Positions 5,382 to 46,547 of a stretch of 64,000 bases of DNA are shown piece by piece. A program made the position numbers and the translations under genes. The stretch's first letter is position 1. Every line of letters starts with the position of its first letter. The DNA is taken from the sequence record OZ346158.1. One strand, 5' to 3'. The notes under the pieces were generated by a model that was given only the letters and a program-made list of their open reading frames with translations, made no database searches and was not told where the DNA came from. The DNA is from a phage.

Positions 5382-5464
5382 CAAATACCTATTGTAATTT
5401 ACAGAAGGGGATGCTAAAATAGTGTCTCCTTCTATGTTGTTCAAATAAAATCGGAGATTCCATA

Positions 5465-29125: not shown

Positions 29126-29162
29126 GCTACCTCCTACCTACCGTCCCTGGTAAGATAAATTA

Positions 29163-29561
29163 TTACTGAACAGAGCGCGGTGCTGGGAAGGATAACTCTT
29201 CTAAAGAGAAGATTTCATTTCCTACCACCCAAGTTGCTGGGTCATCTGGATCAACAGGTTGGATAATCATTACCTCATCCGCCTCGCACACACGTTTCCC
29301 ACCCATAGTAGCGTCAGCCACTAACATACGCGGCTCTTCAGAAATGCACAGGTAGCCACCTCGGCCCACTGTTCCTTCCACGGGATCCTGCCCTTTGACC
29401 ACAATGAATACCTTCTCTCCTGTGGAGATATTACTTTTCACACTAACAGTTTGACCAACTTTAGATGTACCGATCTTGGTGGCTTCAAACATTAAATCCC
29501 GAATTACTGTTGCATAGTTGCCGGACACTTTCTTACCTTCTTTAGTAATCTCAATCTTCAT
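29163..29561 (-). CDS. hypothetical protein
   Basis: ORF. Confidence 0.5.
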   Translation of the reverse strand: MKIEITKEGKKVSGNYATVIRDLMFEATKIGTSKVGQTVSVKSNISTGEKVFIVVKGQDPVEGTVGRGGYLCISEEPRMLVADATMGGKRVCEADEVMIIQPVDPDDPATWVVGNEIFSLEELSFPAPRSVQ

Positions 29562-29833
29562 AATCTAGGCTCCTTAAATGAATCTATGTAATCAATTAAA
29601 TCCCAAGCATCGCGATGGGCTGTCAGAGGGTATACTTCTCCGAGAGGGATCATAGCAATAAGTCTATCAAAAACCCAGTCTGGACGCAACATTTTATGGT
29701 GATATTCCCACTCACCTTCCACAGATTTTTTCTGAGTGATCAGGATCTCTGTGTAGTGTTTCGCCTGTCTTGAGTAGATTGAAAATGACTTGTACATAAA
29801 TGACCCCCTCTTGTTGAAAACAACAATACACAA
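29558..29833 (-). CDS. hypothetical protein
   Basis: ORF. Confidence 0.5.
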   Translation of the reverse strand: MCIVVFNKRGSFMYKSFSIYSRQAKHYTEILITQKKSVEGEWEYHHKMLRPDWVFDRLIAMIPLGEVYPLTAHRDAWDLIDYIDSFKEPRL

Positions 29834-30148
29834 CTACCAGGTTACTGTCAAGTAGGCAACCGTATTATTTTTCTCTGGGGAGATGCCAACAACATCTACC
29901 TGCAGACCTCCTGCCCTTAAATCTCCAACAATGTGCGGGAAGTAATCTGAGAGATGCGAGGGTAGATTTATCGAAAATCCGCACCCCAGAAAGCCTGCTA
30001 ACGCTTTATTTTGTATCTCCCCTACAATCGCATCATAAATGGAGTTAAGCTCGTCAGGGAGCGTTACAGGGCGTTTTAGCGCTAGCTGGTGTAATTTGTC
30101 CTTAGCACTCATTTTCATTTCAGGTCTACCTCTGGGGGTGCCAACCAC
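29834..30148 (-). CDS. hypothetical protein
   Basis: ORF. Confidence 0.5.
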   Translation of the reverse strand: MVGTPRGRPEMKMSAKDKLHQLALKRPVTLPDELNSIYDAIVGEIQNKALAGFLGCGFSINLPSHLSDYFPHIVGDLRAGGLQVDVVGISPEKNNTVAYLTVTW

Positions 30149-30648
30149 ATAAACGGCGGCAAGTCTAAACGGTTTTTCTTATCCCACACAAAATATGCAT
30201 ATGCTTGCCCGTCAGTTCTGCCGTTTGATTGAAATGATGGACGCTTAGATATTGTGATCACAGTAGTAGGTGCATTATCAAGCCACCATTCAAATCTGGC
30301 TTTGCTTTCCAGAAAATTAAGACGCAAAAGCATAATAACTACGTCAGCATCTTTCAACGCCTTGTCTACAAACTCACGAGCCAGGCTGTATGGTGGGTTG
30401 GTGATAATACAGTCAACATGGTTGTATTCTGTATTCAGATAGTCAACACCTTCTTGTATTTCTCCCCATGCAGATCCTAACGGCATACGGGAGTAGAACA
30501 CACCTGAGGCACTATTCCTGCAAGGCTCTAAGTAGGTCCAGTCTTCTGGGAACGGAATAAGGTCATACAGCCCTTCTGCACACCACTCCGGTGTCACATA
30601 CTCATCGTAGGCGTTACGTTGTTCATCAGGTTTTCTAGCACAAGTCAT
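30115..30648 (-). CDS. DNA methyltransferase (N6-adenine/N4-cytosine class, NPPY motif), orphan
   Basis: DCIITNPPYS catalytic motif; no adjacent restriction enzyme. Confidence 0.6.
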   Translation of the reverse strand: MTCARKPDEQRNAYDEYVTPEWCAEGLYDLIPFPEDWTYLEPCRNSASGVFYSRMPLGSAWGEIQEGVDYLNTEYNHVDCIITNPPYSLAREFVDKALKDADVVIMLLRLNFLESKARFEWWLDNAPTTVITISKRPSFQSNGRTDGQAYAYFVWDKKNRLDLPPFMWLAPPEVDLK

Positions 30649-30699
30649 GCAAATCTCCAGATCATAAAAGCCCTCCGAAGAGGGCTTTAGAATTAATGT

Positions 30700-31749
30700 T
30701 TAAGCTTCTTCGACAATTCCTGCACCCAGGATTTTTTCATTGAGCTCTTTTGCTGTTTTAATAATATTGTCCACCAGACGCTTGCGAGTCTTATCTTTCA
30801 CCTTAACCTCTTCACCGCCGTTCAGAGTAGTCTTCAATTGAGACAGAATATCCTGAAGTTCAACGACAGAGAATCTCTGCAGATCTTCTGAAGTAATCTC
30901 ACTCAGGGCAATTCTGACGGTCTCGCCACTTTCCATCTGCAGATTCAGGAACACAGTGTGAACATCACCTTTCGAACCACCCGCTTTTGCAGATTCAACA
31001 GCATGAACTAACTCATCTAAAGATGTGCACTGGTGAATCTCCGGAAGACCTGCTTCACCTAACACGCCTTCTTCATCACCTTTTGCCAGAAGCTTTTTCG
31101 GTTTTTGTCCGTTCTGGATGCGTTGTATGTTGCCTTCATCCAGAATAATAGCTCCAGTGCGTGCTGCCAGCTCTTCTCCGTCCAACCACACTTCGCCACC
31201 AGCTGTGATGGATGCGATCTCATCTTCTGTCAGCACCCCACCGTAGTATTTTTCGATCAGGCGTTCAAAACGTTTTTTCCAGTAGCTGACCTGAGTATTC
31301 ATGTTCACACCGTTACCATAAGTGCCACCTTGATAGTAGTGGAACATAAACTCTGTGTCCGGAGCCACAGTACGTTCTTTACAACCAAGCCATAAGATTG
31401 TTCCAGCAGAGCAGCACATCCCTTCAGCATGTGCAACAACGCTTGCCTGAGACTCTCGGAATGCCTGCAGATAAGCCATTGCAATGTGCACGCAACCCCC
31501 AGGACTATTGATGATCACCCGAATGCTTTCTTCCGGCTGAGCCATACGGATCGTCTGCAGACGAGACATATGATCTTGTAAGTCTTCCAAATCGTCGATA
31601 TAAAGAACGTGGTCAACAACAGGTGTTGGGTAGCTGTATGTTTCCATGATACCGCCCGGCATACCGAACATTTTATTACTCATAGGTTCGAAACCGTTCT
31701 GTTTTTCTTTCATGCCGTGTACCATGGTTCTGCGAGGTGTTAAATTCAT
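30700..31749 (-). CDS. ClpP-like serine protease (S14 family) with C-terminal extension
   Basis: INSPGG...GMCCSAGTILWLG active-site serine context; about 130 aa extra C-terminal region; terminator hairpin 30661-30700. Confidence 0.65.
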   Translation of the reverse strand: MNLTPRRTMVHGMKEKQNGFEPMSNKMFGMPGGIMETYSYPTPVVDHVLYIDDLEDLQDHMSRLQTIRMAQPEESIRVIINSPGGCVHIAMAYLQAFRESQASVVAHAEGMCCSAGTILWLGCKERTVAPDTEFMFHYYQGGTYGNGVNMNTQVSYWKKRFERLIEKYYGGVLTEDEIASITAGGEVWLDGEELAARTGAIILDEGNIQRIQNGQKPKKLLAKGDEEGVLGEAGLPEIHQCTSLDELVHAVESAKAGGSKGDVHTVFLNLQMESGETVRIALSEITSEDLQRFSVVELQDILSQLKTTLNGGEEVKVKDKTRKRLVDNIIKTAKELNEKILGAGIVEEA

Positions 31750-31809
31750 GAGAAATCCTTAATATTGGAAGTTGAAAGCTATTTATTTAAACCTGATTCA
31801 CATTTACCT

Positions 31810-32121
31810 TTATTTAGCAATCACTATGGAATACTTACGATTGTCAGAAGCATCACAACTCAATGATTGCCAGTCTACCACATACCACGTATCATTGTCA
31901 ACAATTACTTTATCGCCTGTTCTGTAGCAAGTGCTGCTTTCAATAATTCGAGACTCGATAAAGAATCTGTGTCGGCGCTCACGTAGCAACGCTAAGTTAA
32001 TTATATTACCACCGCTGTCCTTGGTCCACACATTCTTGGATCCCTTATTTGCCAAAATTGTCTCGCCGTTATAGACAAACAGGCAGTATATTTTATTCAG
32101 TTTCTCTTGTATTGTAGCCAT
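31810..32121 (-). CDS. hypothetical protein
   Basis: ORF. Confidence 0.5.
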   Translation of the reverse strand: MATIQEKLNKIYCLFVYNGETILANKGSKNVWTKDSGGNIINLALLRERRHRFFIESRIIESSTCYRTGDKVIVDNDTWYVVDWQSLSCDASDNRKYSIVIAK

Positions 32122-32222
32122 ACTGTCCTTCTCTCTGTTTTGTCCGATAATAATATCTAAAGCTTACCTATTTGTCAACAACTGTTTTAGATATTTAAGG
32201 GTGGAATAACCACCCTTCTGTA

Positions 32223-33011
32223 TTACTCGGAAACAGGGGTCCAAATATGATTTGCACGATCCTCAATAAGATTGAGTGCGATCTGACGACCCAACCCAGA
32301 ACGAACGACATCGTCTGGACTATCAAAGCTGATCATTCCAACCTCAGGATCTGGATGACGAGTAAAGAAATCCGTCACCCATGCAAGGCCAGATTTACCA
32401 GGGATGTCACGTTGGCTATTATCACCCATAATTACAAGGGTGGCTTGATCAGAGATCCTTGTGATAATTGACAACATTTCTTCAGGGTTAGTTTGCTGTG
32501 CCTCGTCAATCAGGACAAAGCATCGCTCATCGAAACTACGACCACGAATGCTTTCAACTTCACAAATCTCGATACGGCTGTTCTGACCGTCTCCCAGCAT
32601 TGCGGCAAAAGCACCTTTGCCAACACGACGACAAATCGTGTCCATCATGCTTCGAAGATAGGGCCACAGTTTCTGCATTGCATTTCCAGGTTTAAATCCT
32701 GAAGTCTTTCCTGTCTGAACGTAAGGACGTGCAACAATAATCTTATCAATCTCGTTCTTACGCAGAAGATCACCTGCATATGCAGATGCCATGAATGTCT
32801 TACCGGATCCAAACACACCGTTTACAATAATAATCTTACGTGACCCTAGATAATCAAGATACTTTTGCTGCTTCTTATTCATTGGTCGGAGAGCTGGAGC
32901 GGTGTGCTCTCTTTCGTCAGCAAATTTCTCAGCAGCCTTACGCAGGCGATCAGATTTGCGAGCCTCTCTAGCTTCATCACGCATGCGTTTTGTTTCTTTA
33001 GCTCGACCCAT
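32223..33011 (-). CDS. phoH: PhoH-like ATPase
   Basis: Walker A GVFGSGKTFMA, Walker B-like VLIDEAQ, PhoH architecture. Confidence 0.85.
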   Translation of the reverse strand: MGRAKETKRMRDEAREARKSDRLRKAAEKFADEREHTAPALRPMNKKQQKYLDYLGSRKIIIVNGVFGSGKTFMASAYAGDLLRKNEIDKIIVARPYVQTGKTSGFKPGNAMQKLWPYLRSMMDTICRRVGKGAFAAMLGDGQNSRIEICEVESIRGRSFDERCFVLIDEAQQTNPEEMLSIITRISDQATLVIMGDNSQRDIPGKSGLAWVTDFFTRHPDPEVGMISFDSPDDVVRSGLGRQIALNLIEDRANHIWTPVSE

Positions 33012-33049
33012 GTTGGGACTCCTTTCAGATTGAGATGTGCCAAGTACTT

Positions 33050-33400
33050 TTACTGCAACAGTTTTTCAATAGCCGCTTCCATGCTGCTTGCAACAGCCTG
33101 AACTCGGATATTCATCTCTTCTTGGTGGATCAGCTCCTTAAGCTCTTTAATGGTAAATTCTTTAGAGAAACCTTCCACCATAATCTTGTGCAAGGCTTCT
33201 TGCGTGTCTACTTGCAAGAACTTTTCCAGTTTGTTGGCAGAGGCTTCTAAATCAGCCCGAATACGAGGGTCATCTGTGCGATTCAGCATTAGGCGTAAGC
33301 CATCAAGATTAGTAGAAATAGCATCTGCATGTTGAGTAACTAACCGTGGCAAAATGAGATCTACAAACTTATTAGCCAAATCGATACGTTCTTGTGTCAC
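33050..33400 (-). CDS. hypothetical protein
   Basis: ORF. Confidence 0.5.
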   Translation of the reverse strand: MTQERIDLANKFVDLILPRLVTQHADAISTNLDGLRLMLNRTDDPRIRADLEASANKLEKFLQVDTQEALHKIMVEGFSKEFTIKELKELIHQEEMNIRVQAVASSMEAAIEKLLQ

Positions 33401-33572
33401 TGTTGCACCCCCTCTTCATCTTCATGATGTTTCTTTTCACGCTTGTGTTTTTTCTTAAGCTCAAGCGCAATCTCTTTCTTGTACGCCTTCTTCAAGGCTT
33501 TTTTAGCCATTTGGCACCTCCTCTGCTTTCATTACGGCAATTATAACCAACTCAACAAAGCTTTGTCAACAA

Positions 33573-34046
33573 CTAGTCTACCTGAACCCAACCGCCTGAT
33601 ACTTTTTTAAACATTCTTTGGTTATCACTGCCTCGGAACGGTTTCTTGGTTGGTAAATCTTTTACATACTTACCGTCAATGATGATATCAGCCAGTTTAA
33701 GAACATCACTAGAGATATGGTCAAATGTGAACCCAGTATATACAAGAATAGTTTTCTTGTCACCAAATTTTTCCTTAATTTTCTCCATCAGGCTAATAAT
33801 ATCTGGCTCATTATAGTATGCTAAGGGTTCTCCACCCAGCAGAGAGATACCGCACACAGACGGGTTATCTAAATCTGACAAGATTTTTTGCAAGTCTTCT
33901 TCAGTGAACTCCCTCCCCTTATCTTTTGACCAAAATGCCTGATTAAAGCAACCAGGGCAAGCGTGTGGGCACCCAGATACCCACAAGGCAGTTCTAATAC
34001 CTGGTCCTTCGGTGTAAGATATTTCTGTGTATCCAGCAATGTTCAT
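33573..34046 (-). CDS. nrdG: anaerobic ribonucleotide reductase activating protein (radical SAM)
   Basis: CPHACPGC radical-SAM CxxxCxxC cluster; adjacent to nrdD. Confidence 0.85.
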   Translation of the reverse strand: MNIAGYTEISYTEGPGIRTALWVSGCPHACPGCFNQAFWSKDKGREFTEEDLQKILSDLDNPSVCGISLLGGEPLAYYNEPDIISLMEKIKEKFGDKKTILVYTGFTFDHISSDVLKLADIIIDGKYVKDLPTKKPFRGSDNQRMFKKVSGGWVQVD

Positions 34047-34159
34047 AGATACTCCGCATCACATTTAGGGCAATGCCAAATAAAATCGTCTAGTGCCTTG
34101 CACCAACGAAGATTACAACTACAGCCGCACTTGCAAATTTTATAAATACCTGATGACAT
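34043..34159 (-). CDS. small Cys-rich (zinc-ribbon-like) protein, 38 aa
   Basis: Hand translation MSSGIYKICKCGCSCNLRWCKALDDFIWHCPKCDAEYL between nrdD and nrdG; not in ORF track (under 60 aa). Confidence 0.3.
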   Translation of the reverse strand: MSSGIYKICKCGCSCNLRWCKALDDFIWHCPKCDAEYL

Positions 34160-34222
34160 ACTGCACCTCCTAGCTCACTGTGTGTCAATAATATGCCACA
34201 TCCTTGTGGCTTTTGTCAAGAA

Positions 34223-35467
34223 TCAGCAACCACAACTTCCGTAGTGCTTAACTCGCTCGATAACTTCCGCTTGCTTACCTTTATTGTAAGGACGGGAGTT
34301 AGGACTGGAAAGGTATCCAGACACACGTCGAATTACACTGATCGTTCCCTCTTCATGGTTTCCACACTCTGGGCATACAAAGCCTTTAGCTGTTGCACTG
34401 AACTCACCAGAGAAACCACACTTGAGACATTTATCCACAGGTTGGTTAATACCAAAATACATAATGTGTTTATACCCGAAGTCAACAAGAGCCTCTAAAG
34501 CATCCAGGTTGTTTTTCAGGTTAGGTGTTTCTACGTATCCGATGTTGCCACCAGAGGAGATCATAGCAAAACCTTCCTCATACTCCCACTTATCAAAAGG
34601 AGAGCTATTTATCCATACTGGCTGATGGAAACTGTTGGTGAGATATTCATGCTCGTGCTTCAACACTTCCGGATATTCACGATCCAGACAGGTTGCAGCT
34701 TTATAGCATAGACTCTCAGAAGGAGTGCCGTACAAGCTAAATGCTAGTCTACTTTCCTTCTTGTATCGCTCACAAGCATCTCTCATGTGCTGAAGGATTC
34801 CAAGAGCTAAAGCCTTGTCACCCTCTCTGCCCAAAATCTGACAGGTTTCATACACACCGATATACCCAATACTGATGGAAGCGTACCCGTCATAGAAGAG
34901 TTTATCAATACTCTCTTCAGGATCCAGGCGAGCAAGAGCGCCTTCACACCACATGATGGGGTTCTGCCCTGCCTTTGTTCCTTTTAGACGATTAACCCTT
35001 ACAAGGTGAGCCTCGTATGCAAGATCCAAGTATTCGTCAAGAACTGCAAAGAAATCAACACCTTCCGTCTTGGCTTTTGCCGCAATCATTGGCAGGTTAA
35101 GGCTAACAACGCCTAAGTTAAATCTGCCAAGGTATTTCTCCTCGCCTGTTTCCAAGTCATTGTATTTGCTAAGAAAACTCCTGCAACCCATGCTAGTTAC
35201 TTTGCCATCTGTCGAGCCTGTCACTTTTCTATTTAGTGGTACAGATACGAAGTCAGGATAGATACGTTCTGCACAGCATTCCAGAGCTAATCGTTTCAAA
35301 TCATAGTTAGGATCCCCAGGGTTCATGTTGACACCCTCTTCCAGGAAGAACAGCACTTTAGGGAACACAGGTGTGATACGTTCTTCACCAAGACCCATTT
35401 TGTGGACTTTCAGGTAGTTTTTGGTAATCATTCTACCAAAGACCGAGGTATCCAGTCCTAAACTCAA
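34223..35467 (-). CDS. nrdD: anaerobic ribonucleoside-triphosphate reductase, C-terminal exon
   Basis: C-terminal CxxC...CPECG zinc site and glycyl-radical motif RRVSGYL; exact 5' exon boundary not determined. Confidence 0.8.
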   Translation of the reverse strand: MSLGLDTSVFGRMITKNYLKVHKMGLGEERITPVFPKVLFFLEEGVNMNPGDPNYDLKRLALECCAERIYPDFVSVPLNRKVTGSTDGKVTSMGCRSFLSKYNDLETGEEKYLGRFNLGVVSLNLPMIAAKAKTEGVDFFAVLDEYLDLAYEAHLVRVNRLKGTKAGQNPIMWCEGALARLDPEESIDKLFYDGYASISIGYIGVYETCQILGREGDKALALGILQHMRDACERYKKESRLAFSLYGTPSESLCYKAATCLDREYPEVLKHEHEYLTNSFHQPVWINSSPFDKWEYEEGFAMISSGGNIGYVETPNLKNNLDALEALVDFGYKHIMYFGINQPVDKCLKCGFSGEFSATAKGFVCPECGNHEEGTISVIRRVSGYLSSPNSRPYNKGKQAEVIERVKHYGSCGC

Positions 35468-36282
35468 TGTGATGAATGGAGTCTGCTGTCTCCTCCCTGT
35501 GTTTCCACAGGGCCAGACTATCTCTTACTCTACTTCAATAAGATAATAACCCTTTATTGTGAGATGCTTACCTTCGGCATTTCCTTCGATAGCCCTATGA
35601 ACGTTACCTACGTTCAAATTTAAGGCTTTTGCACAGGCATAGAGTGAAGGATATTCACCAACCAAGGTTTTACCTTTGTATGCCTGCACTTTCCTATAGC
35701 ACTTACCTGGACAAAGTCCTGTTCGGAAAGCATGTCTCTTATTATCTTCCGGCAAAACCCACTCTAGGTTAGACGGATGATCATTCAATGTATTGCCATC
35801 TTTATGATTCACTTCCCAGTTTTCAGGGTCTACTGGGACATCTGGCAAACAATACAAGGCAACAACCCTTGAGGTTTGGATTCGAATCTTTTTGCCTTTG
35901 TGGTTGAAAGAGTACATATAACGGCGTTTAACATGCTTGTTACCTTTTCCATAACCTCCCCACAATATTGGGTGTAGCATTCCACGTTTTCCGTATACGT
36001 TTCCAACCTCATCAATCACATAGTTTGATTCTTCACCATTAAGAATGATCTTTTTCATAGAGCCTCTCCATTTCGAAGTTAGTATTTCAACTAACCCCTA
36101 CACTACTTGGTTCAGAAATGTTTGTCAAGCATCTCTGCCTTTCGTTAGTCGTTACAACCGTTCCAACTCCTGTAAGAACTAGTCACGGGATTGGCATAGC
36201 TTTCGCCTTAGCGTTCCCCGTTAGCCGGATTTACCGACCCCTCTTATGAGGTTAGGAGAGTTTTACAACGGCCAGTTTGTTA
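35468..36282 (-). mobile_element. Group I intron in nrdD (approximate bounds) carrying HNH endonuclease
   Basis: nrdD split into N- and C-terminal ORFs flanking an HNH ORF; S-like element agatagtctgg on - strand near 35480. Confidence 0.65.
35525..36058 (-). CDS. HNH homing endonuclease, intron-encoded
   Basis: NWEVNHKDGNTLNDHPSNLEWV HNH core. Confidence 0.85.
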   Translation of the reverse strand: MKKIILNGEESNYVIDEVGNVYGKRGMLHPILWGGYGKGNKHVKRRYMYSFNHKGKKIRIQTSRVVALYCLPDVPVDPENWEVNHKDGNTLNDHPSNLEWVLPEDNKRHAFRTGLCPGKCYRKVQAYKGKTLVGEYPSLYACAKALNLNVGNVHRAIEGNAEGKHLTIKGYYLIEVE

Positions 36283-37143
36283 ACCGTTGACAGAAGTTAA
36301 CGTATTGATTTGATAGAGCAAAGTCTGCATGCTGTCAAATACGTCTTTATCTGTCATTTGCATTGCAACAGTCTCAGCATCTGGCAACCAATGTTCCTGG
36401 CAAAATTTAAGGTTCTTCTCATAGGTCGCTTCAGCATACTGTGCCAGATAATGATCAATATGGCTCATAGTCTGACCACCATATTGAGCACTAGCTACCG
36501 CACTAGAGATTTGGCTAAGGATTGTTGTTGCAACCCCTATTGACTTCGGCTTACTGACATGGGCGTTACCAATGTTGAATCCGTTTTCCAACATATCTGG
36601 ATAATTTACCAAACAACAGTTTGTTAACGGACTGATCAAGTAGTCAAGATCATGCACATGGATGAATCCTTTATTGTGCTCTTCGGAGACACGGTCTGGC
36701 AGGATCTGTGTTGATGCAAGGTGTTTGCTAAGAATACCTGCAAGCAGGTCGCGATGAGTGTGTACATGATTAGTAGGCTTATTTGCGTTTTCTTTTGTAA
36801 ATTCATCACAAGTTCGATCCAAGAAGCCACTAATATCTGCAAGCAGTTTTCCACCTGCCTCTCTGTTATTATCTCTTGTCTGTCTATACTGGATGTATTC
36901 TCTGGCTGCACATTTTAAACCCATATCCATAAGAGCATCTTCAACAAGGATATGGATATTTTTTACAGAGATCGTGCACTGGTCGGTTGGTAGATTGTTA
37001 GCAACAACTTCATTAACCGCGCAGGCGATCCGGTAAGCTTCTTCTTCAGTATGTCCAGACTCAAGTAAGGCGGACTCTGCCGCCTTGATCACCTTAATTC
37101 CGTTATAGAACTCTTCTCTACCGTCCCGTTTTACAACTTTCAC
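36280..37143 (-). CDS. nrdD: anaerobic ribonucleoside-triphosphate reductase, N-terminal exon (ATP cone)
   Basis: ATP-cone start MKVVKRDGREEFYNGIKVIKA; ORF terminates at intron border. Confidence 0.8.
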   Translation of the reverse strand: MKVVKRDGREEFYNGIKVIKAAESALLESGHTEEEAYRIACAVNEVVANNLPTDQCTISVKNIHILVEDALMDMGLKCAAREYIQYRQTRDNNREAGGKLLADISGFLDRTCDEFTKENANKPTNHVHTHRDLLAGILSKHLASTQILPDRVSEEHNKGFIHVHDLDYLISPLTNCCLVNYPDMLENGFNIGNAHVSKPKSIGVATTILSQISSAVASAQYGGQTMSHIDHYLAQYAEATYEKNLKFCQEHWLPDAETVAMQMTDKDVFDSMQTLLYQINTLTSVNG

Positions 37144-37418
37144 TTTTTCTCTCCAAAACCATTCTTAACAAAAGAGATGAAATCGTCGGCACCGCCTATA
37201 TGGACACTGTCAAGATCGCTTTCTAAGAAGATCTGCGGCAACGTTCTGGGGACAATTGGACTGCACTTCTCAATAAGCTCTTCTTTTGTGTAGCCCTCGC
37301 CAAGTGTCTTATATACAAAAGGCAGACCTTTGCTGATTGCAAATTCTTTTGCTCTGACACAATGTGGGCAGTTATCCTTACCGTAAATGATGATGAAAAA
37401 AGATTTTTCGCAGCTCAT
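37140..37418 (-). CDS. glutaredoxin
   Basis: CPHC active site, TLPQIF and GGADDF motifs. Confidence 0.8.
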   Translation of the reverse strand: MSCEKSFFIIIYGKDNCPHCVRAKEFAISKGLPFVYKTLGEGYTKEELIEKCSPIVPRTLPQIFLESDLDSVHIGGADDFISFVKNGFGEKK

Positions 37419-37421
37419 ATA

Positions 37422-38510
37422 TTAAAACTCCCAAATTTCTTCTTCAGCGTCGTTAACAGTTGTGTTGACGCGGTAGTCAGTGTTCGACATTTCTTGGTTC
37501 GCCGTCTGTTGTAATGAAGGTTTCATCCACACCTGCATAAACGGTAGCGGGTCCTTTGTTGGCGGCACAAAGTCTTTGTCGATGTCGTAGTAATCATAAA
37601 TCGGTGAGCAGTTATAGTCAACCCACTCTTTAAGCAACGGTGAGTTAAGACCTATAATCGCTCTTCCTTCGCTGAAAATATAGTCACTCCAACCGTACTC
37701 TTTGGTTCGTACTTCATCAAGAATCTCTTTTAACTCCCCCTTTATCTCAAGGAAGCTTTTCTCCCATGCGGGATCATTAAGCAAGATATCAATGATGGCA
37801 AAATCACCTTTCGAATGTAGCATTTCGTCAAGCATGATTTTTTGAACAAGCTGCGCCACCTGAACAAAGATACCCTGTTCAGCTACTGCGAAAGTGCATG
37901 CAAAACTTGCAATAAACTCAATACTTTCCAGAGCTAAAAGCGCAAAAAGCGCTCTAAGAATGCATTTCCGCACAATATCTTCTTCAACACTAGAAGGATC
38001 CAGGCGGTATTTTGCACCAATAACCTCAAGCTCTTGCATGTATTTGACAATAACGCCGGATCTGCTCAGAACGTTTTGGTTTTCCTGAATCTCTTCTATA
38101 ATCTCACGGGCATTGGGGAGGCATTGTCTAACAATCTCTGAGTAAGTTAGTGCGTGAAGAACTTCAATCTCTGACTGTTTCATCAATAGAGTGAAAAGCT
38201 CACTATTAGTGATGAATGGTGAAAAGAGGCAGATGATCGATCTTGCCGCAACGCTATCAGCCTCCCATTGCCACATCAAGGTCTGCACCATCACGTCATA
38301 AGTTGACTTTGAGCATGTTACAAAATCTGAAATAGATTGCGACAAATCCACTTCATCCTCTGCCCAATCTTGCTCTTTTTGTTTTTTGTATAGTTCAAAC
38401 AGTTGTGGATATTTTTTGTTGATAGAGTCGTACATACCCATTTGCTGTCCCAGAAACAGCGGATAGTCACCAGTTTTATGAGCGGTGTTCTCAGCATTAA
38501 ATACAGCCAT
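37422..38510 (-). CDS. nrdB: ribonucleotide reductase class Ia small subunit
   Basis: About 360 aa immediately downstream of nrdA; start taken at MAVFNAEN with SD agagg; a GC hairpin lies between nrdA stop and this start. Confidence 0.75.
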   Translation of the reverse strand: MAVFNAENTAHKTGDYPLFLGQQMGMYDSINKKYPQLFELYKKQKEQDWAEDEVDLSQSISDFVTCSKSTYDVMVQTLMWQWEADSVAARSIICLFSPFITNSELFTLLMKQSEIEVLHALTYSEIVRQCLPNAREIIEEIQENQNVLSRSGVIVKYMQELEVIGAKYRLDPSSVEEDIVRKCILRALFALLALESIEFIASFACTFAVAEQGIFVQVAQLVQKIMLDEMLHSKGDFAIIDILLNDPAWEKSFLEIKGELKEILDEVRTKEYGWSDYIFSEGRAIIGLNSPLLKEWVDYNCSPIYDYYDIDKDFVPPTKDPLPFMQVWMKPSLQQTANQEMSNTDYRVNTTVNDAEEEIWEF

Positions 38511-38548
38511 TATTCTACCTCTAAAATGGGGCCGAAGCCCCTTTAAAA

Positions 38549-40864
38549 TTATAGTGCACAGCTTTCGCAATACGGATCTTCAACTGAACTATCTGCAATC
38601 AAAGGATAGTTCTTTCTGGTTTCATCTTCAGCCTGTTTCTTGGCATGAAGTTCCTCTGCCAAGGAGTCACCAGCACCAACCCTAGAGTTTAAATAATACC
38701 ATGTCTTCATCCCGAATTTAGTGGCACGGATAAGGTACCCTAACTGCTCCTTCATTGAAATTTTACCATCTTTCAACTTGGTGTAGTCTATGTATAAATC
38801 CGCGCTGATTGCCTGACCTGTGAATTTTTGAATCACGGCATACATATCGATCATGTCGTTAGTATCAACGTCCCAAGCCGAGGTATAATACTCTTTCAAC
38901 TCATCATAGTCAGGAACGATAAACAGCACCTGCCCTTGTGGCGACTTTTTAAAGATAATGTGCTCACGGACAGGATAAACCCCGTTAGTGGTGTTTGTTG
39001 CCAGCGAAGAGCTTTCATTAGGCATATATGCTTCAAGAACGCTATTACGTAGCCCACCATTCTCAATGATTTCTTTACGTAACCCTTCCCAATCCTGTTT
39101 AAGAGAAGGATCTTTCACCACGCTATCGACCTCTTTGTTATAGGTGTCGATTGGTAACCAACCTTCTGGATATTTTGTTTTATGCATCCACTCGCAGACA
39201 CCACGCTCTTTTGCCAACCGTAAACTTGCCTTATGCAAGCTGTAGCTGTGAAGTTCTGCAAGATCGTGAACGAGCTGTTTACTTTCAGGAGACCCGTAAG
39301 TAACCTTGTGGCTGGCAATAAAATGTGCAACATTGGTAAGGCCAACCCCGATGGATCTGCGTTTTTTAACTGTGCTTTCCATATTTTCATACGGATATGT
39401 CATGATTTCCATAACATTGTCAATCATAAGCACCGTATAGTATGCAACATCCTCATACTCCTCTGGAGTAACCCTCCCAGCTACAAGAGATGACAGGAAG
39501 CACAATGCAACCTCTCCATCATCAGCATCGTACTTGAAGATATTACGCATATCTGAATAGCCTTTTGTCGGGAGGGCTATTTCTGCACACAGGTTGCTTG
39601 AATAGATCACATCTTTAAAAGGTGTATGTCTATTCATCTCATCTGTCCAGTATACGTACAGCCTTCCCACCTCAGTGCGCTGCGTGATCAGTTCAACAGC
39701 AAGATCTCTAGCTCGGATCCATGTTTTAGGAATACTGTCATCTTTAGCAATACGATCAACCTCTGCATCAAACTCCTCCATAGACATGGTGAAGATACCC
39801 TCATGCAGTTGAGGCGCGTGCTTATAAGAAACAAGCATCCAATCTAAATTCTTAGCCACACGGTTGATAAACGACCTATTAATACCGATGGAGTAGTCCA
39901 TGGTGTTGATTCTTTTTGAAGCAACAGTCATAGGGTTTCTCAAACGGATTAGCTCATCAATCTGCGGGTCCAGTGCAAGGAATGATACTGTTGCAGAACC
40001 ACCACGTGATTGTTGTCTGTTCTCCTTAACCCCAGCATCAATACCTCGATAATATGGAATCTTACCCATATGTTTAATAGTGTTACCACGAACACCATCG
40101 CCTGCAGATCTTGAGGATAAGTAGTAGCCGATACCTGCTTGGTTAACCGTCATTGTGTACGCAACTTCACGTGCCACACCAATAGATTTTGCTGTATCGT
40201 CAGCTTTTATTACACAACAAGATGCATACCCTGTCTTACCTGTGCGCAGCCCGTTTAAGTACGGTGTTGGGGCATTGATCTTTAAGTCGGACAGATAAGT
40301 GTATAATTTTACAACATCGTTGATACGACGTTCTTTCGGCATATTCTTCATGACAGCCATTGCTATCCCCATAAACATCATCTGGGGAGATTCAAACAAG
40401 GTGTCTTTAAGAGTATCCTTGATCCCGTATTTGTCGCGAAACTGTTTAAGGACTGCATAGCCATAACCGAGATCTTTACTGTGGTCAATAACAGCGTCTA
40501 AAGTGTTTAGCTCGGTAAAGCTATAACCCATATCCTCCCAATAACCTTTCTCAACCATGTCATTGTAAAATGATGGTAAGGAAGGGATCTTTGTAAACCC
40601 TCCAAAAGCCTCTTTATAGATCTGACCAATAAGAACACGACCAGCCATACGGGAATGTGCTTCGTCTTTACGGCTAACACAAGAGTCTATAATAGCTTGG
40701 TTAACTTCTTTGGTTGTACATCCATCATACAACCGCTTGTAGGCATCCAGTGCAATATGTGACCAATTGCCGTTACCATCGTCACCGAAAATAGCTGCCT
40801 TATTTAAACGTTCTGGATCGAATGCCACTTCACATCCGTTGCTTTTAATTACCTTGGTGATCAA
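38549..40864 (-). CDS. nrdA: ribonucleotide reductase class Ia large subunit
   Basis: ATP cone at N-terminus, active-site SSNLCAEIALP, 771 aa. Confidence 0.9.
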   Translation of the reverse strand: MITKVIKSNGCEVAFDPERLNKAAIFGDDGNGNWSHIALDAYKRLYDGCTTKEVNQAIIDSCVSRKDEAHSRMAGRVLIGQIYKEAFGGFTKIPSLPSFYNDMVEKGYWEDMGYSFTELNTLDAVIDHSKDLGYGYAVLKQFRDKYGIKDTLKDTLFESPQMMFMGIAMAVMKNMPKERRINDVVKLYTYLSDLKINAPTPYLNGLRTGKTGYASCCVIKADDTAKSIGVAREVAYTMTVNQAGIGYYLSSRSAGDGVRGNTIKHMGKIPYYRGIDAGVKENRQQSRGGSATVSFLALDPQIDELIRLRNPMTVASKRINTMDYSIGINRSFINRVAKNLDWMLVSYKHAPQLHEGIFTMSMEEFDAEVDRIAKDDSIPKTWIRARDLAVELITQRTEVGRLYVYWTDEMNRHTPFKDVIYSSNLCAEIALPTKGYSDMRNIFKYDADDGEVALCFLSSLVAGRVTPEEYEDVAYYTVLMIDNVMEIMTYPYENMESTVKKRRSIGVGLTNVAHFIASHKVTYGSPESKQLVHDLAELHSYSLHKASLRLAKERGVCEWMHKTKYPEGWLPIDTYNKEVDSVVKDPSLKQDWEGLRKEIIENGGLRNSVLEAYMPNESSSLATNTTNGVYPVREHIIFKKSPQGQVLFIVPDYDELKEYYTSAWDVDTNDMIDMYAVIQKFTGQAISADLYIDYTKLKDGKISMKEQLGYLIRATKFGMKTWYYLNSRVGAGDSLAEELHAKKQAEDETRKNYPLIADSSVEDPYCESCAL

Positions 40865-41169
40865 TTTGCTTCCTCCACTTCACTAACGTATTTATCAAGG
40901 CAGGTATCAGTATCTTGCTGGATAAAAGTATCCTCTTCTACAGAGATATTTATAATTTTACCTGTATACTCGTCATAATAGACATCATCATACATTTTAA
41001 TATCGTTTGTCAGGCCATTGAACCAAAGCCAACCAACATACTCTGCCCGACTTGCAAAACCAAGATCCTTCCACTTGGAGTTATGACTCATCTTCACCAC
41101 CTTAGCTTTCAATACCGAATAATTTTTCCAGGCGATGCAGATCTTCAAAATTGAAAGGTTCATCAACAA
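40861..41169 (-). CDS. hypothetical protein
   Basis: ORF. Confidence 0.45.
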   Translation of the reverse strand: MLMNLSILKICIAWKNYSVLKAKVVKMSHNSKWKDLGFASRAEYVGWLWFNGLTNDIKMYDDVYYDEYTGKIINISVEEDTFIQQDTDTCLDKYVSEVEEAN

Positions 41170-41602
41170 TATGAATATCTTCAGCCTTTTCAGATTGTTT
41201 TGTATACTTTCTTACATTAACACGATCCTCTACGGGGATATCATACGGGAGATCTTGAACAAGCATTGCCTCACCAGGTGCTTTATCTACATCTAAAATA
41301 TCTACACCGTTATACATTTGTGGGTATCTAAAGTCTGCACGCATGACACCAGCAAATACATCTGCCTTTCGATAATGTGTTGGCTTATTTTTGCATCGAA
41401 CGTTTTTTCCACGAAGAACATCAATACTTTTTAAATCAAACCCTACGGCAAAGAGTGCAGCTCGGAGACCGTTTCGTGTGCGAACGTTAAACCCGGGGAC
41501 GGTAGATAGAAAATCTAAAGTAACTGAAATAAATGTCTTTTTAGGAATCATAACATTACTCATATCTGTCTCCATTTCTGGCTCACCAACAAAGTGAGCC
41601 AT
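41102..41602 (-). CDS. hypothetical protein
   Basis: ORF. Confidence 0.5.
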   Translation of the reverse strand: MAHFVGEPEMETDMSNVMIPKKTFISVTLDFLSTVPGFNVRTRNGLRAALFAVGFDLKSIDVLRGKNVRCKNKPTHYRKADVFAGVMRADFRYPQMYNGVDILDVDKAPGEAMLVQDLPYDIPVEDRVNVRKYTKQSEKAEDIHIVDEPFNFEDLHRLEKLFGIES

Positions 41603-41661
41603 TATTATAGATTATCTAATACTATTAGTCAACACAAAAGTTACCTATCGCTGTGATAGGA

Positions 41662-42645
41662 TTAACCTTTCACGAAGTGGTTATTAAGCAGTTGTCTGTG
41701 CTGAACCCACCCACAAAAGTTGGCAGACCAGAATTTACCATCACGGTCTTGATGGGTTACACCTTCCTGCCAAGTACTGATGTCTTGTGTGATTTCACAT
41801 GAAGACAGGTAGTAGTTTAAACGTTCCATTGCGTTATCGTGATCCATAGGTGTTGCCTGGTGCTCGTAAGGGCTTGCATGAATACGATCCCCACCAATCA
41901 ATTTTTTAGCCACACTATCTGCCTTTTCAAACGTGCTGTCAATATTTCGATAAGATACTTGTGCACAGCAACTAGCACTGATAGACAGAGCTTCTTTAGT
42001 ATCGAGAATGCAGAGCTTTCCTTCTGTGTCACGTACAGCGTAGTTAAACTCTCCGTCCAAATAAACGTGCTCTACATATGGGGTGTGCCATTGACCCGGT
42101 TTAAGGATTTCAGGAGTGCTATTCTCAAGAGCCTCCCACATACAATTAGCTAACATCTGAATCGTAGGATCCGCATCGTGCCAGCAACGGAGGTGGAAAA
42201 AATTATTCCACTCGGTGCTTGTTACAACTGTTTTCATGCGCTGGAACGGCTCCACTAAGCGGTTACATACTTGCTTATGGTAACCAGCAAGGGCGAACTT
42301 CTCTGCATGCCAAGCGGCGTTTTTTGCAGCTTCTTTCCAAAACTCTTCAGGAGTTAGCTCCATGTCAGTGTACTCTACACGGATCTTTTGATCGTGTTCC
42401 CCACCATCTTCCATTCCTCGCTTATTTACACCGAAGCGAACTGGCATTGCCGGATTCTCCACAATCTGTTGCAGCATCTTGCCGACAGGTACTGCACGGG
42501 AAGACATGGCGTTTCGGCTGAACACTCGGTGCGTCATAAGCTCTGAGTGAATAATTCGAGGATACTCTAGTTCAAAAGTGGTGATACGCTTACCTTTCTC
42601 GGAAATGCTGTCAGCAATAATCTTTGCAGTGCACAGTTTTAGCAT
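41662..42645 (-). CDS. thyX: flavin-dependent thymidylate synthase
   Basis: ThyX signature HRVFSRNAMSSRA (RHR..S..N..S.R pattern). Confidence 0.7.
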   Translation of the reverse strand: MLKLCTAKIIADSISEKGKRITTFELEYPRIIHSELMTHRVFSRNAMSSRAVPVGKMLQQIVENPAMPVRFGVNKRGMEDGGEHDQKIRVEYTDMELTPEEFWKEAAKNAAWHAEKFALAGYHKQVCNRLVEPFQRMKTVVTSTEWNNFFHLRCWHDADPTIQMLANCMWEALENSTPEILKPGQWHTPYVEHVYLDGEFNYAVRDTEGKLCILDTKEALSISASCCAQVSYRNIDSTFEKADSVAKKLIGGDRIHASPYEHQATPMDHDNAMERLNYYLSSCEITQDISTWQEGVTHQDRDGKFWSANFCGWVQHRQLLNNHFVKG

Positions 42646-42845
42646 TATTTAGCTCTCCTTGTTTTAATTTTGGAAATTTCGTCTGGGTTTATGTTGGCCT
42701 TAAATGCAAGGTATCTGTTGAACATGTCAGAGCACATATCTTGGGTGATCCTAGAGGCATACACTAGCTTACCTCCTAGATCATACACCTCTAGCCAGTC
42801 ACCGTATCTGACTACAGGATCGCCACCTTTAGAACATCTGCCCAT
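42645..42845 (-). CDS. hypothetical protein
   Basis: ORF. Confidence 0.45.
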   Translation of the reverse strand: MGRCSKGGDPVVRYGDWLEVYDLGGKLVYASRITQDMCSDMFNRYLAFKANINPDEISKIKTRRAK

Positions 42846-42846
42846 T

Positions 42847-43440
42847 TCAAATACCTTCTAAAAATTTTCCTATTTTATACCAGCTATTAGCGGTATAGTC
42901 AACACTGACCTTTAACTCCTCGAATTGCTCATAAGGCGTATCTTTTAGGATTTTAATAACTTCAGGTCGTGAAGCGAATTGGTTCAGGTATTCATGCCTG
43001 TCGTCAATTATAACATCTACAGCCACATTCCCTTTGAAATGTGTGGCGTAGAAGCCGTGGCCCTGGGTGTGATCGTCCAGATCCATAAAATCACTGGTCC
43101 AACGCTTTAAGAACCTTGATTTAGATGCAAGGTGACCTTTCTTGCATACCGAGATAAATGCAAGCTTGTGACCACGAGCCACCAAATCTTTCATAACCTC
43201 AATAGCCCCCTCTTCAGGCTTAAGGAAGTCGTAGAGGAACGGATCACTCCAGAAATCAAAAGGTCCTATGATGTTTTCTTTGGGACGATCAGGCCAATAC
43301 TTTGACAGATCGTAATACATTAGCCCATTAGAAGGTTTAGCTACTGTCTTACTGGCTGGACCATACAAACGCTCCAACCACTCCCACCATGCTGTTCCTG
43401 AATCTACCAGTGTCAGATCTACATCAATTCCGATTAACAT
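42847..43440 (-). CDS. HAD-superfamily 5'-nucleotidase (deoxyribonucleotidase-like)
   Basis: N-terminal DVDLT (DxDxT) HAD motif I. Confidence 0.6.
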   Translation of the reverse strand: MLIGIDVDLTLVDSGTAWWEWLERLYGPASKTVAKPSNGLMYYDLSKYWPDRPKENIIGPFDFWSDPFLYDFLKPEEGAIEVMKDLVARGHKLAFISVCKKGHLASKSRFLKRWTSDFMDLDDHTQGHGFYATHFKGNVAVDVIIDDRHEYLNQFASRPEVIKILKDTPYEQFEELKVSVDYTANSWYKIGKFLEGI

Positions 43441-44048
43441 TCTTCTTGGGCCTCTTTAGCATCAATATACTTGCACACAATCTCCGATGCACACTCCCAA
43501 GGTGCACCTTCAGGGTTTACAACATCAAACTCAACCCCTTTTATTCCGTTCTTTTCCAGACTTAGATAGGTTCTGGAATCATTTCCCCAGTCATATCCTA
43601 CACGGTGAATACGGAACAACAACAGATCTCCACCTGTGCTGTATGCGTACTCGCTAAGGCATGCCAGCTCCTCTTTGAATCCCCCATCGGAGTAAACAAT
43701 AACCCCTTTACCTTCAGGGAAATCTTTCTTCAAAGATGCGACTGCGGCTTTACCGAAAGCATCTTCACCAAAGATAGGTTTAATCAGATTTTCACTACAA
43801 TGGATCATCCATTCTCGCGGAGAAACATGCTTGCCGTCTATCATTAAGAAAGGGCAAGGCTCTTCTTTGTAGTGGCGGTCATAAAGTGCATTCCAGAGTT
43901 GAGGAGTTACACCAGCTGCCTTAATTGCCACACTGAAGAGCATTTCCTTAACCTCACGGTGGTGTGAGTTAGGAATAGCTTCCAACAAGAGATCTGCAAT
44001 GTGATCCTTACCACTGCTGGGTGGGGCGTTAAGAACAATAATATCCAT
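43434..44048 (-). CDS. P-loop nucleotide kinase (dNMP kinase-like)
   Basis: N-terminal P-loop NAPPSSGKD. Confidence 0.55.
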   Translation of the reverse strand: MDIIVLNAPPSSGKDHIADLLLEAIPNSHHREVKEMLFSVAIKAAGVTPQLWNALYDRHYKEEPCPFLMIDGKHVSPREWMIHCSENLIKPIFGEDAFGKAAVASLKKDFPEGKGVIVYSDGGFKEELACLSEYAYSTGGDLLLFRIHRVGYDWGNDSRTYLSLEKNGIKGVEFDVVNPEGAPWECASEIVCKYIDAKEAQEEC

Positions 44049-44251
44049 TAAAAACCTCCGTGGTATTCTTCAACTGCATCAATAATACTTTTACACTTAT
44101 CTACCAGCTCGTTAGCCACTACAGCATCGTCTTCCCAAACAGCCTCCTCAATCTGATCAAGCAATGATCGCATCTTACTCATCATTTCTGGGATAAAGTT
44201 TTCTGAAAAGCTGTCTGGAATTGTTAACTCTAGTGTCATTTCGGTCTCCAA
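44048..44251 (-). CDS. hypothetical protein
   Basis: ORF. Confidence 0.45.
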   Translation of the reverse strand: METEMTLELTIPDSFSENFIPEMMSKMRSLLDQIEEAVWEDDAVVANELVDKCKSIIDAVEEYHGGF

Positions 44252-44266
44252 TCATACTATGCGTTA

Positions 44267-44725
44267 TTAGAAGTTTGTTTTTACACGTCCCTTCTCATCA
44301 ACCTCGTTGTTAGCTAAAAGCGTTACAAAGTCTGTGAAACGAACATGAAGAACCCTTTTCTTATCAAGGTATCCTAAAGCCACCCCTGAGAAATTTAGCA
44401 TCAAAGGGGCTAAAGAAGCTCTGGCACTGAAATGCTGTTGTTCTACCCTTCCAACACCCTTAGTGTAGGATGGGTTAAGATTGTAAGTTCTGAATCCCAG
44501 TTTTGTTGGAGCTTTAGAATTAAAAACGACTTTATAGCGTTTCTTACTCAACTTATGCTCCAGGATAAGCATTCCCTTATCACCTTTGATAAGTTGAAAA
44601 TCTGTAAAGTGCTCTTTTAAGACGAAAGGTAGTGCCAGTCCCATCGCCTGTCCTCTTTGTACCGCTGTCTCACCAAAAGCTTTTGCATCAGTAAGTTCTT
44701 TGGTCAAGTCTATGCTTTTGATCAT
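44267..44725 (-). CDS. hypothetical protein
   Basis: ORF. Confidence 0.5.
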   Translation of the reverse strand: MIKSIDLTKELTDAKAFGETAVQRGQAMGLALPFVLKEHFTDFQLIKGDKGMLILEHKLSKKRYKVVFNSKAPTKLGFRTYNLNPSYTKGVGRVEQQHFSARASLAPLMLNFSGVALGYLDKKRVLHVRFTDFVTLLANNEVDEKGRVKTNF

Positions 44726-45536
44726 ACCTGGTCTCCAAAATGTATTGTAGTTCTTTCTTACCTATACTCTTCATTCCAGCAGTCTTACCTGCTTCTTCTT
44801 GAAAAGAAGAATAGCATTCAGCAAACACTCTGTCAACACCGTTAACTAAAGATTTTATGAAATATGTTGATTCTTCAGATTTTGGGTCATCATCCCCCAA
44901 TACTTTTCCAGCATTATACCCAACACGTCTTACACAGAAGTCGTAGTCATCTGGTGTGCTAAAAGAAAATAACTTATTCTCTCCAATCTCTACAGGATCC
45001 CTATTGCACGCCTTTTTCTCCCAAATTTGGAAAACACATGGCACGTCATAAGGTTTGCCATTAAGTAAAAACGAATTCTTAGGGCACCTTTCGCTGTAGA
45101 CAAGGTGCATCGACATGTCCAGTTTGTTTGCAAAAAATATTTTTTCAAATGTCCGTGGCAAGATGAAGGCTATAGCCCCTCCAAGCTCTAGCAATGATGC
45201 ACAATGGTTAAAGAATTTGCAAGCTAAGGATGAATTCTTGCCAAATGGTGGGTTACCTATGAAGACATCTGCCTTGGGATGCACCTCCAAGAAGTTTGCC
45301 TGAATGCACGGTGTTGGTCCTTCAAATTCAGGATCTGGTACTAAATCGTACGACAGTATCTCTGAAAATAGTTTTGAAAAAGAACCCCTTCCAGCAGAAG
45401 GCTCAACGTATGCACAATTCCCATACTTATCTTTTACTTTACCAACAAGATATTCTGCATACTCAGGGTTTGTGTAGTATTTGTCGTTGGACTCTTTCTT
45501 GCTCAAAGTGCCTCCAAAAGGAAAAGGGAGGCGCAA
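44688..45536 (-). CDS. DNA N6-adenine methyltransferase (NPPF motif), orphan
   Basis: SAM-binding VEPSAGRGSF and catalytic FIGNPPFG. Confidence 0.65.
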   Translation of the reverse strand: MRLPFPFGGTLSKKESNDKYYTNPEYAEYLVGKVKDKYGNCAYVEPSAGRGSFSKLFSEILSYDLVPDPEFEGPTPCIQANFLEVHPKADVFIGNPPFGKNSSLACKFFNHCASLLELGGAIAFILPRTFEKIFFANKLDMSMHLVYSERCPKNSFLLNGKPYDVPCVFQIWEKKACNRDPVEIGENKLFSFSTPDDYDFCVRRVGYNAGKVLGDDDPKSEESTYFIKSLVNGVDRVFAECYSSFQEEAGKTAGMKSIGKKELQYILETRYDQKHRLDQRTY

Positions 45537-45551
45537 GCCTCCCTATAATTG

Positions 45552-46535: not shown

Positions 46536-46547
46536 CGTTAAGATTCC

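Follow-up and report, generated by a model that had tools for sequence, protein, structure and literature searches.

Orphan adenine methyltransferases that act on GATC are familiar from the Dam-type enzymes of Escherichia coli and of phages T4/T2, P1 and T1, which lack an endonuclease partner and produce Gm6ATC. A second point of reference is the gamma class of Type II enzymes (M.TaqI, M.BseCI and others), which are 421-544 amino acids in length, and a third is the group formed by M.CviQI, M.PabI and M.HpyAXII, which are GTAC-specific adenine methyltransferases. Here we describe two methyltransferase genes, designated A and B, that reside in a 64,000-nucleotide stretch of phage DNA (sequence record OZ346158.1; hereafter the window). 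The window derives from a Vequintavirus, an rV5-like E. coli myovirus, as evident by a megablast search with positions 29000-47000 in which the best matches are phages slur16 and slur12 (99.4% identity), ahead of other Vequintavirus (rV5-like) myoviruses, and in which 114 phage records cover at least 80% of the query. The two genes are as follows.

30115..30648, minus strand: gene A, encoding a 177-amino-acid minimal N6-adenine DNA methyltransferase with GATC specificity, assigned from its motifs and from an experiment on its ortholog
44688..45506, minus strand: gene B, encoding a 272-amino-acid gamma-type N6-adenine DNA methyltransferase, a candidate GTAC enzyme composed of a catalytic core and a C-terminal recognition domain

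Taken as a whole, the data make it probable that these are two orphan enzymes that form N6-methyladenine (m6A), with A acting at GATC, B most probably acting at GTAC, and with site-specific protection of the phage as the most that the two marks provide. In the mechanism we propose, both proteins would use S-adenosylmethionine (SAM) to methylate adenines in the phage's own replicating DNA, with no cognate endonuclease present. Protein A would be a minimal core with gamma-class motif order that modifies essentially every GATC site at its adenine, in both strands. Protein B would join a similar core to a compact C-terminal recognition domain, and would most probably write GTm6AC. Any protection should be directed against the enzymes that are blocked by Gm6ATC or GTm6AC rather than being general, and A also carries a cost, in that it sets off retron abortive-infection systems when it methylates GATC in the multicopy single-stranded DNA (msDNA) that they contain.

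The methylation evidence comes from Bas51 (Escherichia phage WalterGehring, MZ501111.1), a different isolate of the same genus. The Bas51 protein bas51_0176 matches A at 176 of 177 residues, with V174A as the sole difference, its gene occupies the same position beside a gene for a ClpP-like protease, and we find no material difference between the two proteins. Likewise, the Bas51 ortholog of B is identical at 270 of 272 residues. Bas51 mutants that escape retrons Asa1 and Squ1 have been isolated, and mutations D69G, D79G and T83P abolished defence when introduced anew into a clean background (PMC12548924; PLoS Biol, 2025). Residues D69, D79 and T83 are present in both A and bas51_0176, whereas B carries Q, A and I at these positions. 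Therefore, the enzyme characterised in that study is the ortholog of A.

Native nanopore sequencing of wild-type Bas51 yielded 1405 m6A calls at GATC, 509 at GTAC and 576 elsewhere, and the corresponding numbers for the T83P mutant are 35, 511 and 349 (PMC12548924). The Bas51 genome carries 703 GATC and 258 GTAC sites, which represent 1406 and 516 adenines, respectively. Thus 1405/1406 GATC adenines and 509/516 GTAC adenines were called, and so both motifs are methylated to approximately 99% on both strands. Because GATC methylation is lost and GTAC methylation is kept in the T83P mutant, A is the GATC enzyme: its ortholog, one residue apart, is required for m6A at GATC and not at GTAC. An earlier sequence-only reading of the window had predicted two distinct specificities, and methylation-sensitive sequencing published for near-identical Bas51 virion DNA bears this out by revealing full methylation at GATC and GTAC (PMC12548924). 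In our literature search we found neither digests of rV5-like phage DNA with KpnI or RsaI nor a Vequintavirus methylome besides that of Bas51.

The fall in calls outside the two motifs from 576 to 349 in the T83P mutant suggests some off-target activity of A. By our own reasoning, such activity would fit both the missing recognition domain of this protein and its toxicity when expressed alone, which was reported together with the triggering of retrons Asa1 and Squ1 by the A ortholog (PMC12548924). Bas51 was grown on ordinary E. coli, and Dam is never mentioned in the same study (PMC12548924). Since only 35 of 1406 GATC adenines are methylated in the mutant, and since such hosts are ordinarily dam+, we infer that host Dam falls behind phage replication and contributes little during infection, with replication speed, exclusion or inhibition as possible causes. 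We gave no weight to a claim, based on ClaI, that DNA of the related phage CB7 is Dam-methylated, since Dam of the host could account for it.

The features of protein A are consistent with this activity. The sequence-only reading had singled out a 177-residue frame of the NPPY type at 30115-30648, and this frame is indeed present. It lies on the minus strand, its residues 83-87 read TNPPY, and a GGAG Shine-Dalgarno sequence (30658-30655) is located 6 nucleotides ahead of its ATG at 30648. Its motifs include D15-x-Y17-x-T19-P20 (motif X), L40-E-P-C (the motif I region), D69, D79, T83-N-P-P-Y87 (motif IV) and R136-P-S-F. In an alignment of 54 homologs, the invariant set comprises D-x-Y-x-TP, LEPC-x-G-x-G, D69, TNPPY and RPSF, with T83, N84, P85 and P86 each invariant. 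Approximately 35 residues follow motif VIII, and there is no separate recognition domain. A confident fold model is closest to M.TaqI, and the strong full-length match of A to phrog_799 (annotated 'DNA methyltransferase') has an E-value of 8.1e-67. A makes the same product as the Dam-type enzymes, Gm6ATC on both strands, and like them is an orphan, but it differs in that it is not a member of the alpha-class Dam family, has its motifs in the gamma-like order X, I, then IV, has only 177 residues and almost lacks a recognition domain.

Profile searches with A place it outside the curated families. Its scores are below the cut-offs for PF05869 'Dam' (19.2 versus 28.1 bits), TIGR01712 (16.1 versus 97.05) and EcoRI_methylase, PF13651 (20.1 versus 26.4). 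There is no match to PF02086, the alpha-class Dam family, and the match to the PADLOC model MTase_II is marginal and local (9.7e-4), falling short of full length. Searches with tblastn locate A in 544 phage records. The gene resides beside the ClpP-like gene across Vequintavirus, in relatives that infect Klebsiella, Cronobacter, Pectobacterium and Erwinia (59-66% identity), and in Phapecoctavirus/phi92-like phages (~47%).

For B, the same reading had proposed a 282-residue frame of the NPPF type at 44688-45536. The minus-strand frame ending at 44688 exists and carries GNPPF and EPSAGRG, but its start was misplaced by 30 nucleotides. The TTG at 45506 is preceded by a GGAGG Shine-Dalgarno sequence at 45515-45511, it is the start used in curated records, and homologs also begin there ('MSK...'). 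Therefore, we assign B to 44688-45506 with 272 residues. The first nine residues of the longer form are modelled with predicted local distance difference test (pLDDT) values below 50.

The core of B is marked by D-K-Y-Y-T-N-P, EPSAGRGSF and GNPPFG, and its C-terminal target-recognition domain of approximately 100 residues carries RRVG-x-x-AGK and TAG-x-x-S-x-x-K-x-EL. Among 56 aligned homologs the conserved elements are DQFYTxP, EPSAGxGxF, GNPPFG and C-terminal RRVGGxAGK ... TAGVRSxSKxEL, with the residues G-N-P-P-F-G invariant. The full-length structural alignments of B are to the DNA methyltransferases M.BseCI, MmeI, CamA and M.TaqI, with 242, 255, 238 and 229 aligned residues, respectively, and its C-terminal domain superposes on the recognition domains that these enzymes carry. 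Protein B also matches the PADLOC Type II methyltransferase model PDLC03255 at 3.3e-34 (residues 8-253 aligned to positions 2-249 of the 269 in the profile), and the family phrog_5172 ('unknown function') strongly and over its full length at 4.4e-129. It reaches only 15.5 bits with PF07669 Eco57I, where the cut-off is 25.3, and does not match PF05869 or TIGR01712. PF26055, a family that is precomputed on many B homologs, was not included in the Pfam copy that we searched. The B family comprises 806 relatives in the protein database. In phage records searched with tblastn, B occurs in 224 entries confined to Vequintavirus (94-100%), Phapecoctavirus (~54%) and scattered distant phages, and it is present in all vequintaviruses sampled.

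Proteins A and B had been called unrelated by the sequence-only reading, a view that we do not share. When the two family alignments are compared by hhalign, they match with a probability of 97.9% and E = 4.8e-13 over 146 columns that extend from motif X to motif VIII. Furthermore, the hidden Markov model (HMM) of each family detects the other protein in the window (3.3e-7 and 2e-4), and both phrog_799 and phrog_5172 are matched by A and by B. Both proteins have SAM-binding motif I on a Rossmann-like fold, and share the gamma-like motif order X - I - IV - VIII. Judged by these comparisons of sequences, the catalytic domains are homologous and distantly related, and B is, in effect, the catalytic core of A with a recognition domain of about 100 residues added. 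Sequence identity of either protein to gamma-class enzymes such as M.TaqI and M.BseCI is only 14-20%. B is far shorter than these enzymes and has a much smaller recognition domain, whereas A does without one, and the phage has no endonuclease partner.

Assigning the GTAC mark to a gene is less direct. Vequintavirus DNA carries the same mark that is made by M.CviQI, M.PabI and M.HpyAXII, and B is the candidate for making it. Within the window, A and B are the only frames of at least 100 residues that carry a (D/N/S)PP(Y/F/W/H) motif, and the earlier count of two methyltransferases is therefore correct for this stretch. However, it does not hold beyond it, because slur16, EmilHeitz (BASEL phage Bas49) and Bas51 carry two further methyltransferase-like genes, designated C and D, approximately 4-7 kb past the left end of the window. 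These genes are located as follows.

Bas51 bas51_0070, locus L016, 14456-15781: gene C, type III Mod-family methyltransferase, intact at 441 amino acids, about 6 kb past the left end
slur16 gp056, locus L019, 3695-5020: gene C, likewise intact at 441 amino acids and about 6 kb past the left end
EmilHeitz, locus L015, 14474-15800: gene C split by a frameshift into a 43-amino-acid N-terminal open reading frame (ORF) and a 386-amino-acid ORF in another frame
Bas51 bas51_0074, locus L016, 17042-17806: gene D, 253-amino-acid 'Dcm-like C5 cytosine methyltransferase'
slur16 gp052, locus L019, 1670-2434: gene D, as in Bas51

Protein C carries a DPPF motif and matches Pfam family N6_N4_Mtase and the PADLOC model MTase_III (1.5e-205), its relatives in the PDB are the Mod subunits of Helicobacter pylori and EcoP15I, and no Res subunit is annotated nearby. 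Protein D carries the motifs FDGSGG and FPPCTHL, is very short for a C5 enzyme, and has no match in Pfam or PADLOC. The published nanopore analysis of Bas51 covered 6mA calls only. Given that the full genomes carry a third adenine methylase, C, as well as D, we rejected simple elimination as proof that B writes the GTAC mark.

Elimination combined with considerations of enzyme class nevertheless makes B the better candidate than C, and we regard it as fairly probable that B is the writer of GTm6AC. Methylation of GTAC is independent of A, as evident by the 509 calls in the wild type and 511 in the T83P mutant, and we know of no GTAC methylase in E. coli K-12. Type III Mod enzymes usually hemimethylate asymmetric sites of 5-6 base pairs. 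The saturated, two-strand methylation of a 4-base-pair palindrome is the behaviour of a Type II enzyme and therefore fits B. Calls outside GATC and GTAC that persist in the T83P mutant, 349 in number, are close to the mean of 275 per 5-mer counted on both strands of Bas51, and C may account for them.

A different division of labour, in which C writes GTm6AC and B either has another DNA target among the remaining m6A calls or is only weakly active, strikes us as unlikely. It draws support from the fact that C is intact in both Bas51 and slur16 and belongs firmly to a family of DNA adenine methylases, and the 349 otherwise unexplained calls could be the work of B. However, enzymes of the type to which C belongs typically modify a single strand, whereas 509-511 of 516 GTAC adenines are modified and both strands are affected. 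Gene C is also frameshifted in EmilHeitz and is found at 90% identity or better in only ~88 records, compared with ~119 for A, whereas B is never absent from the sampled vequintaviruses. Finally, the class of B suits a short palindrome, as it is a gamma-class Type II enzyme, its recognition domain is small, and its bacterial relatives have a Type II endonuclease as a partner.

The bacterial relatives of B therefore merit description. From 281 such relatives in bacterial genomes, 80 loci were kept for an analysis of neighbouring genes, and in 19 of these a homologous ORF of ~200-280 amino acids follows the B-family methylase directly on the same strand. These 19 loci come from Campylobacterota, Sphingomonadales, Rhodobacterales, Verrucomicrobiota and other groups, and are distributed as follows.

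Loci L028, L044, L045 and 16 other bacterial loci, about 4750-5500, plus strand: partner ORF; an example is L004, 6805-7404
Locus L004, 6001-7404: methylase and partner pair of Poseidonibacter ostreae

The partner matches the PADLOC model REase_II PDLC03460 in 18 of the 19 loci, with a best E-value of 5.3e-15. Members of this family are ~210 amino acids in length and share the motifs Q-HGK-FE, FD..D..PTSIK, LSDAR and LNPKIDS-QRRLQCS, and neither a Pfam family nor a PDB relative was found for them. This family is a candidate Type II restriction enzyme, and B is, to judge from gene arrangement and sequence, an orphaned methylase half of a Type II restriction-modification (R-M) pair. The possibility that the partner is a GTAC glycosylase of the PabI/HpyAXII type (HpyAXII is cited in PMC12707154) was considered and rejected, as neither a single sequence nor a profile matched the PDB and there is no Pfam family. 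An HMM of the partner family detected nothing at E <= 10 in any frame of the window, and searches of the neighbours of A and B in Pfam, PHROGs and PADLOC returned no restriction endonuclease. Therefore, both genes are orphans, as the sequence-only reading had proposed on the grounds that no endonuclease lies adjacent to either.

The bacterial pairing also bears on the idea that B is an N6-adenine methyltransferase of ribosomal or transfer RNA, of the METTL5/PH1948 (COG2263) type, that acts on host or phage RNA. Matches of this type do exist and are limited to the core of B, which spans ~150 residues. By comparison, recognition domains of DNA methyltransferases are the only structures that align with its C-terminal ~100 residues, models of Type II DNA methyltransferases are matched over the full length of the protein, and the pairing with a homolog of Type II restriction enzymes in 19 of 80 loci would be sensible only for a DNA methylase. 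We therefore judge an RNA target to be very improbable.

A broader interpretation, which we favour by a slight balance, is that B is the first member of the large phrog_5172 family to be assigned a function, namely that of a compact m6A methyltransferase specific for GTAC, left as the orphan of a two-gene Type II R-M system. On this interpretation the bacterial partner would be a GTAC-cutting enzyme whose fold has yet to be solved, and A and B would both be unusually minimal sequence-specific methylases. GTAC ranks lowest of 16 palindromes around the bacterial loci that encode both a B homolog and the endonuclease, though not by a significant margin over loci without the endonuclease.

What the two marks do for the phage is a separate matter. 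The sequence-only reading had envisaged self-protection against multiple restriction systems, and an anti-restriction purpose at the cognate sites is plausible. [quoted passage not shown] Six R-M systems were tried on vequintaviruses. To our knowledge, none of the systems tested by those authors has GATC or GTAC in its recognition site, and therefore only general protection is excluded.

The absence of general R-M resistance also leaves room for a selected role other than anti-restriction. MutH nicks GATC sites that are unmethylated or hemimethylated, and Dam times replication, packaging or transcription for other phages. Saturating methylation of GATC might thus shield rapidly replicating and recombining DNA from nicking by MutH, or might time such processes. 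With methylation reduced to 35/1406 adenines in the mutant, DNA made in the absence of A would be a substrate for MutH. In the window, GATC occurs 352 times where 239 are expected, and is over-represented (observed/expected ratio of 1.47 by a zero-order model and 1.05 by a Markov model), unlike many palindromes that are avoided. Gene A is also kept beside the ClpP-like gene across all Vequintavirinae genera and their relatives, which suggests a core role rather than a host-specific one. However, loss-of-function mutants of the A ortholog form plaques at wild-type levels on E. coli K-12 (PMC12548924), and under laboratory conditions the phage can therefore do without any such role. We consider this alternative possible but doubtful.

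GTAC is under-represented in the window, with 128 occurrences where 239 are expected. Palindromes are strongly avoided: eight GC-rich ones of 6 base pairs are absent from the window (CCGCGG, CGATCG, CGGCCG, CTCGAG, GACGTC, GCCGGC, GTCGAC and TGGCCA), each of which is expected 6-11 times from base composition. One of these, CGATCG, is absent although it contains GATC.

Several observations weigh against the view that A and B are a GATC and a GTAC methyltransferase that offer site-specific protection. Both proteins fall short of every curated cut-off in Pfam and NCBIfam, that of PF02384 N6_Mtase included. The link between B and GTAC draws on elimination and class reasoning while C is intact in Bas51 and slur16, and a Mod-type enzyme such as C could conceivably have a palindromic site. 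The GTAC mark is not attributed to any gene in the study of Bas51 (PMC12548924), and the avoidance of GTAC in bacterial loci with the endonuclease, compared with those lacking it, does not reach significance (permutation p = 0.21; family-wise 0.42). Lastly, vequintaviruses are highly sensitive to R-M systems, and protection by either mark is putative.

Proteins A and B are genuine orphan DNA adenine methyltransferases that are already annotated, and in this respect the finding is an ordinary one. More than 100 GenBank records label both as putative N6-adenine methyltransferases, including EmilHeitz, in which each is a 'putative N6 adenine methyltransferase', and the RefSeq record of slur16 names them 'DNA methyltransferase' and 'SAM-dependent methyltransferase'. 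When used as single sequences, neither has a meaningful sequence relative in the PDB, and a search of viral folds in BFVD returned only unnamed or generic methylases. With no Pfam or NCBIfam cut-off reached and no PDB relative, the earlier methyltransferase call therefore rested on motifs. Adenine methyltransferases without partners are a classic theme among phages, both genes are annotated in every sequenced vequintavirus, and the activity and motif of A were published in 2025. Of practical use is the expectation that investigators who employ rV5-like phages for therapy, engineering or defence screens will encounter DNA that is fully modified at Gm6ATC and GTm6AC, and will find that A triggers some retrons. 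Such DNA should be resistant to enzymes of the MboI/DpnII type and probably to those of the RsaI/KpnI type, and should be sensitive to enzymes of the DpnI type.

Both genes reside on the minus strand within a long block of leftward genes for nucleotide metabolism and replication, which encode the ClpP-like protease, PhoH, NrdDG, NrdAB, ThyX, a deoxynucleoside monophosphate (dNMP) kinase, a DnaQ-like exonuclease and EndoVII. A small downstream ORF of unknown function overlaps each of the two. These ORFs, and two hairpins located nearby, are as follows.

29834..30118, minus strand: 94-amino-acid ORF of unknown function, phrog_12158
30668..30687, minus strand: hairpin AAGCCCTC-TTCG-GAGGGCTT followed by TTTAT, read from the sequence, between the stop of the ClpP-like gene (30700) and A
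44267..44725, minus strand: 152-amino-acid ORF of unknown function, phrog_9938, sharing 38 nucleotides with the 3′ end of B
45525..45544, minus strand: intrinsic-terminator-like hairpin GGGAGGC-TTGC-GCCTCCC followed by TTTTCCTTTT, with 8 pairs (6 of them G-C), a loop of 4 and a T-rich tail

The annotated ATG of the 94-amino-acid ORF overlaps the stop codon of A by 4 nucleotides, and for this reason the two are probably translationally coupled; the ORF product has no match in Pfam or PADLOC. A search with the partner-family HMM reveals that the 152-amino-acid ORF is unrelated to the restriction enzyme that accompanies the bacterial homologs of B. The hairpin upstream of B follows the DnaQ-like exonuclease gene, is the first-listed terminator-like site of the region, and holds TTG 45536 within its loop. 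The terminator scan did not list the hairpin upstream of A, as the T-tail there falls short of the length that its rule requires.

Other genes in the vicinity are of more peripheral interest. The ClpP-like protease gene (30700-31749, minus strand) is directly upstream of A, an adjacency that is kept across Vequintavirinae genera. A 2026 preprint describes an EcCdnG cyclic oligonucleotide-based antiphage signalling system (CBASS) operon that is activated when phage proteases cleave a loop of the CD-NTase, and that defends against Bas48-59. Approximately 1.2 kb downstream of A, and in the same direction, is a gene (28362-28886, minus strand) that is the ortholog, at 99.6% nucleotide identity, of the 'putative glycosidase' gene bas51_0171. 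The R87* mutation of bas51_0171, seen in retron escapers, abolishes defence by Asa1 and not by Squ1 (PMC12548924). The gene nrdD, for the anaerobic ribonucleotide reductase, contains a homing-endonuclease gene (35525-36058, minus strand) and appears in the BASEL annotation as a join of two pieces. These genomes hold several homing endonucleases, and the one within nrdD does not serve A or B as a restriction enzyme.

About 20 unannotated GenBank records labelled 'Campylobacter phage' with C. jejuni as host are 99.6-100% identical to this phage over the A region. These include MG065635, MG065653-55, MG065662, MG065666, MG065672-77 and MG065684, and they look like mislabelled or contaminant assemblies rather than true Campylobacter phages.

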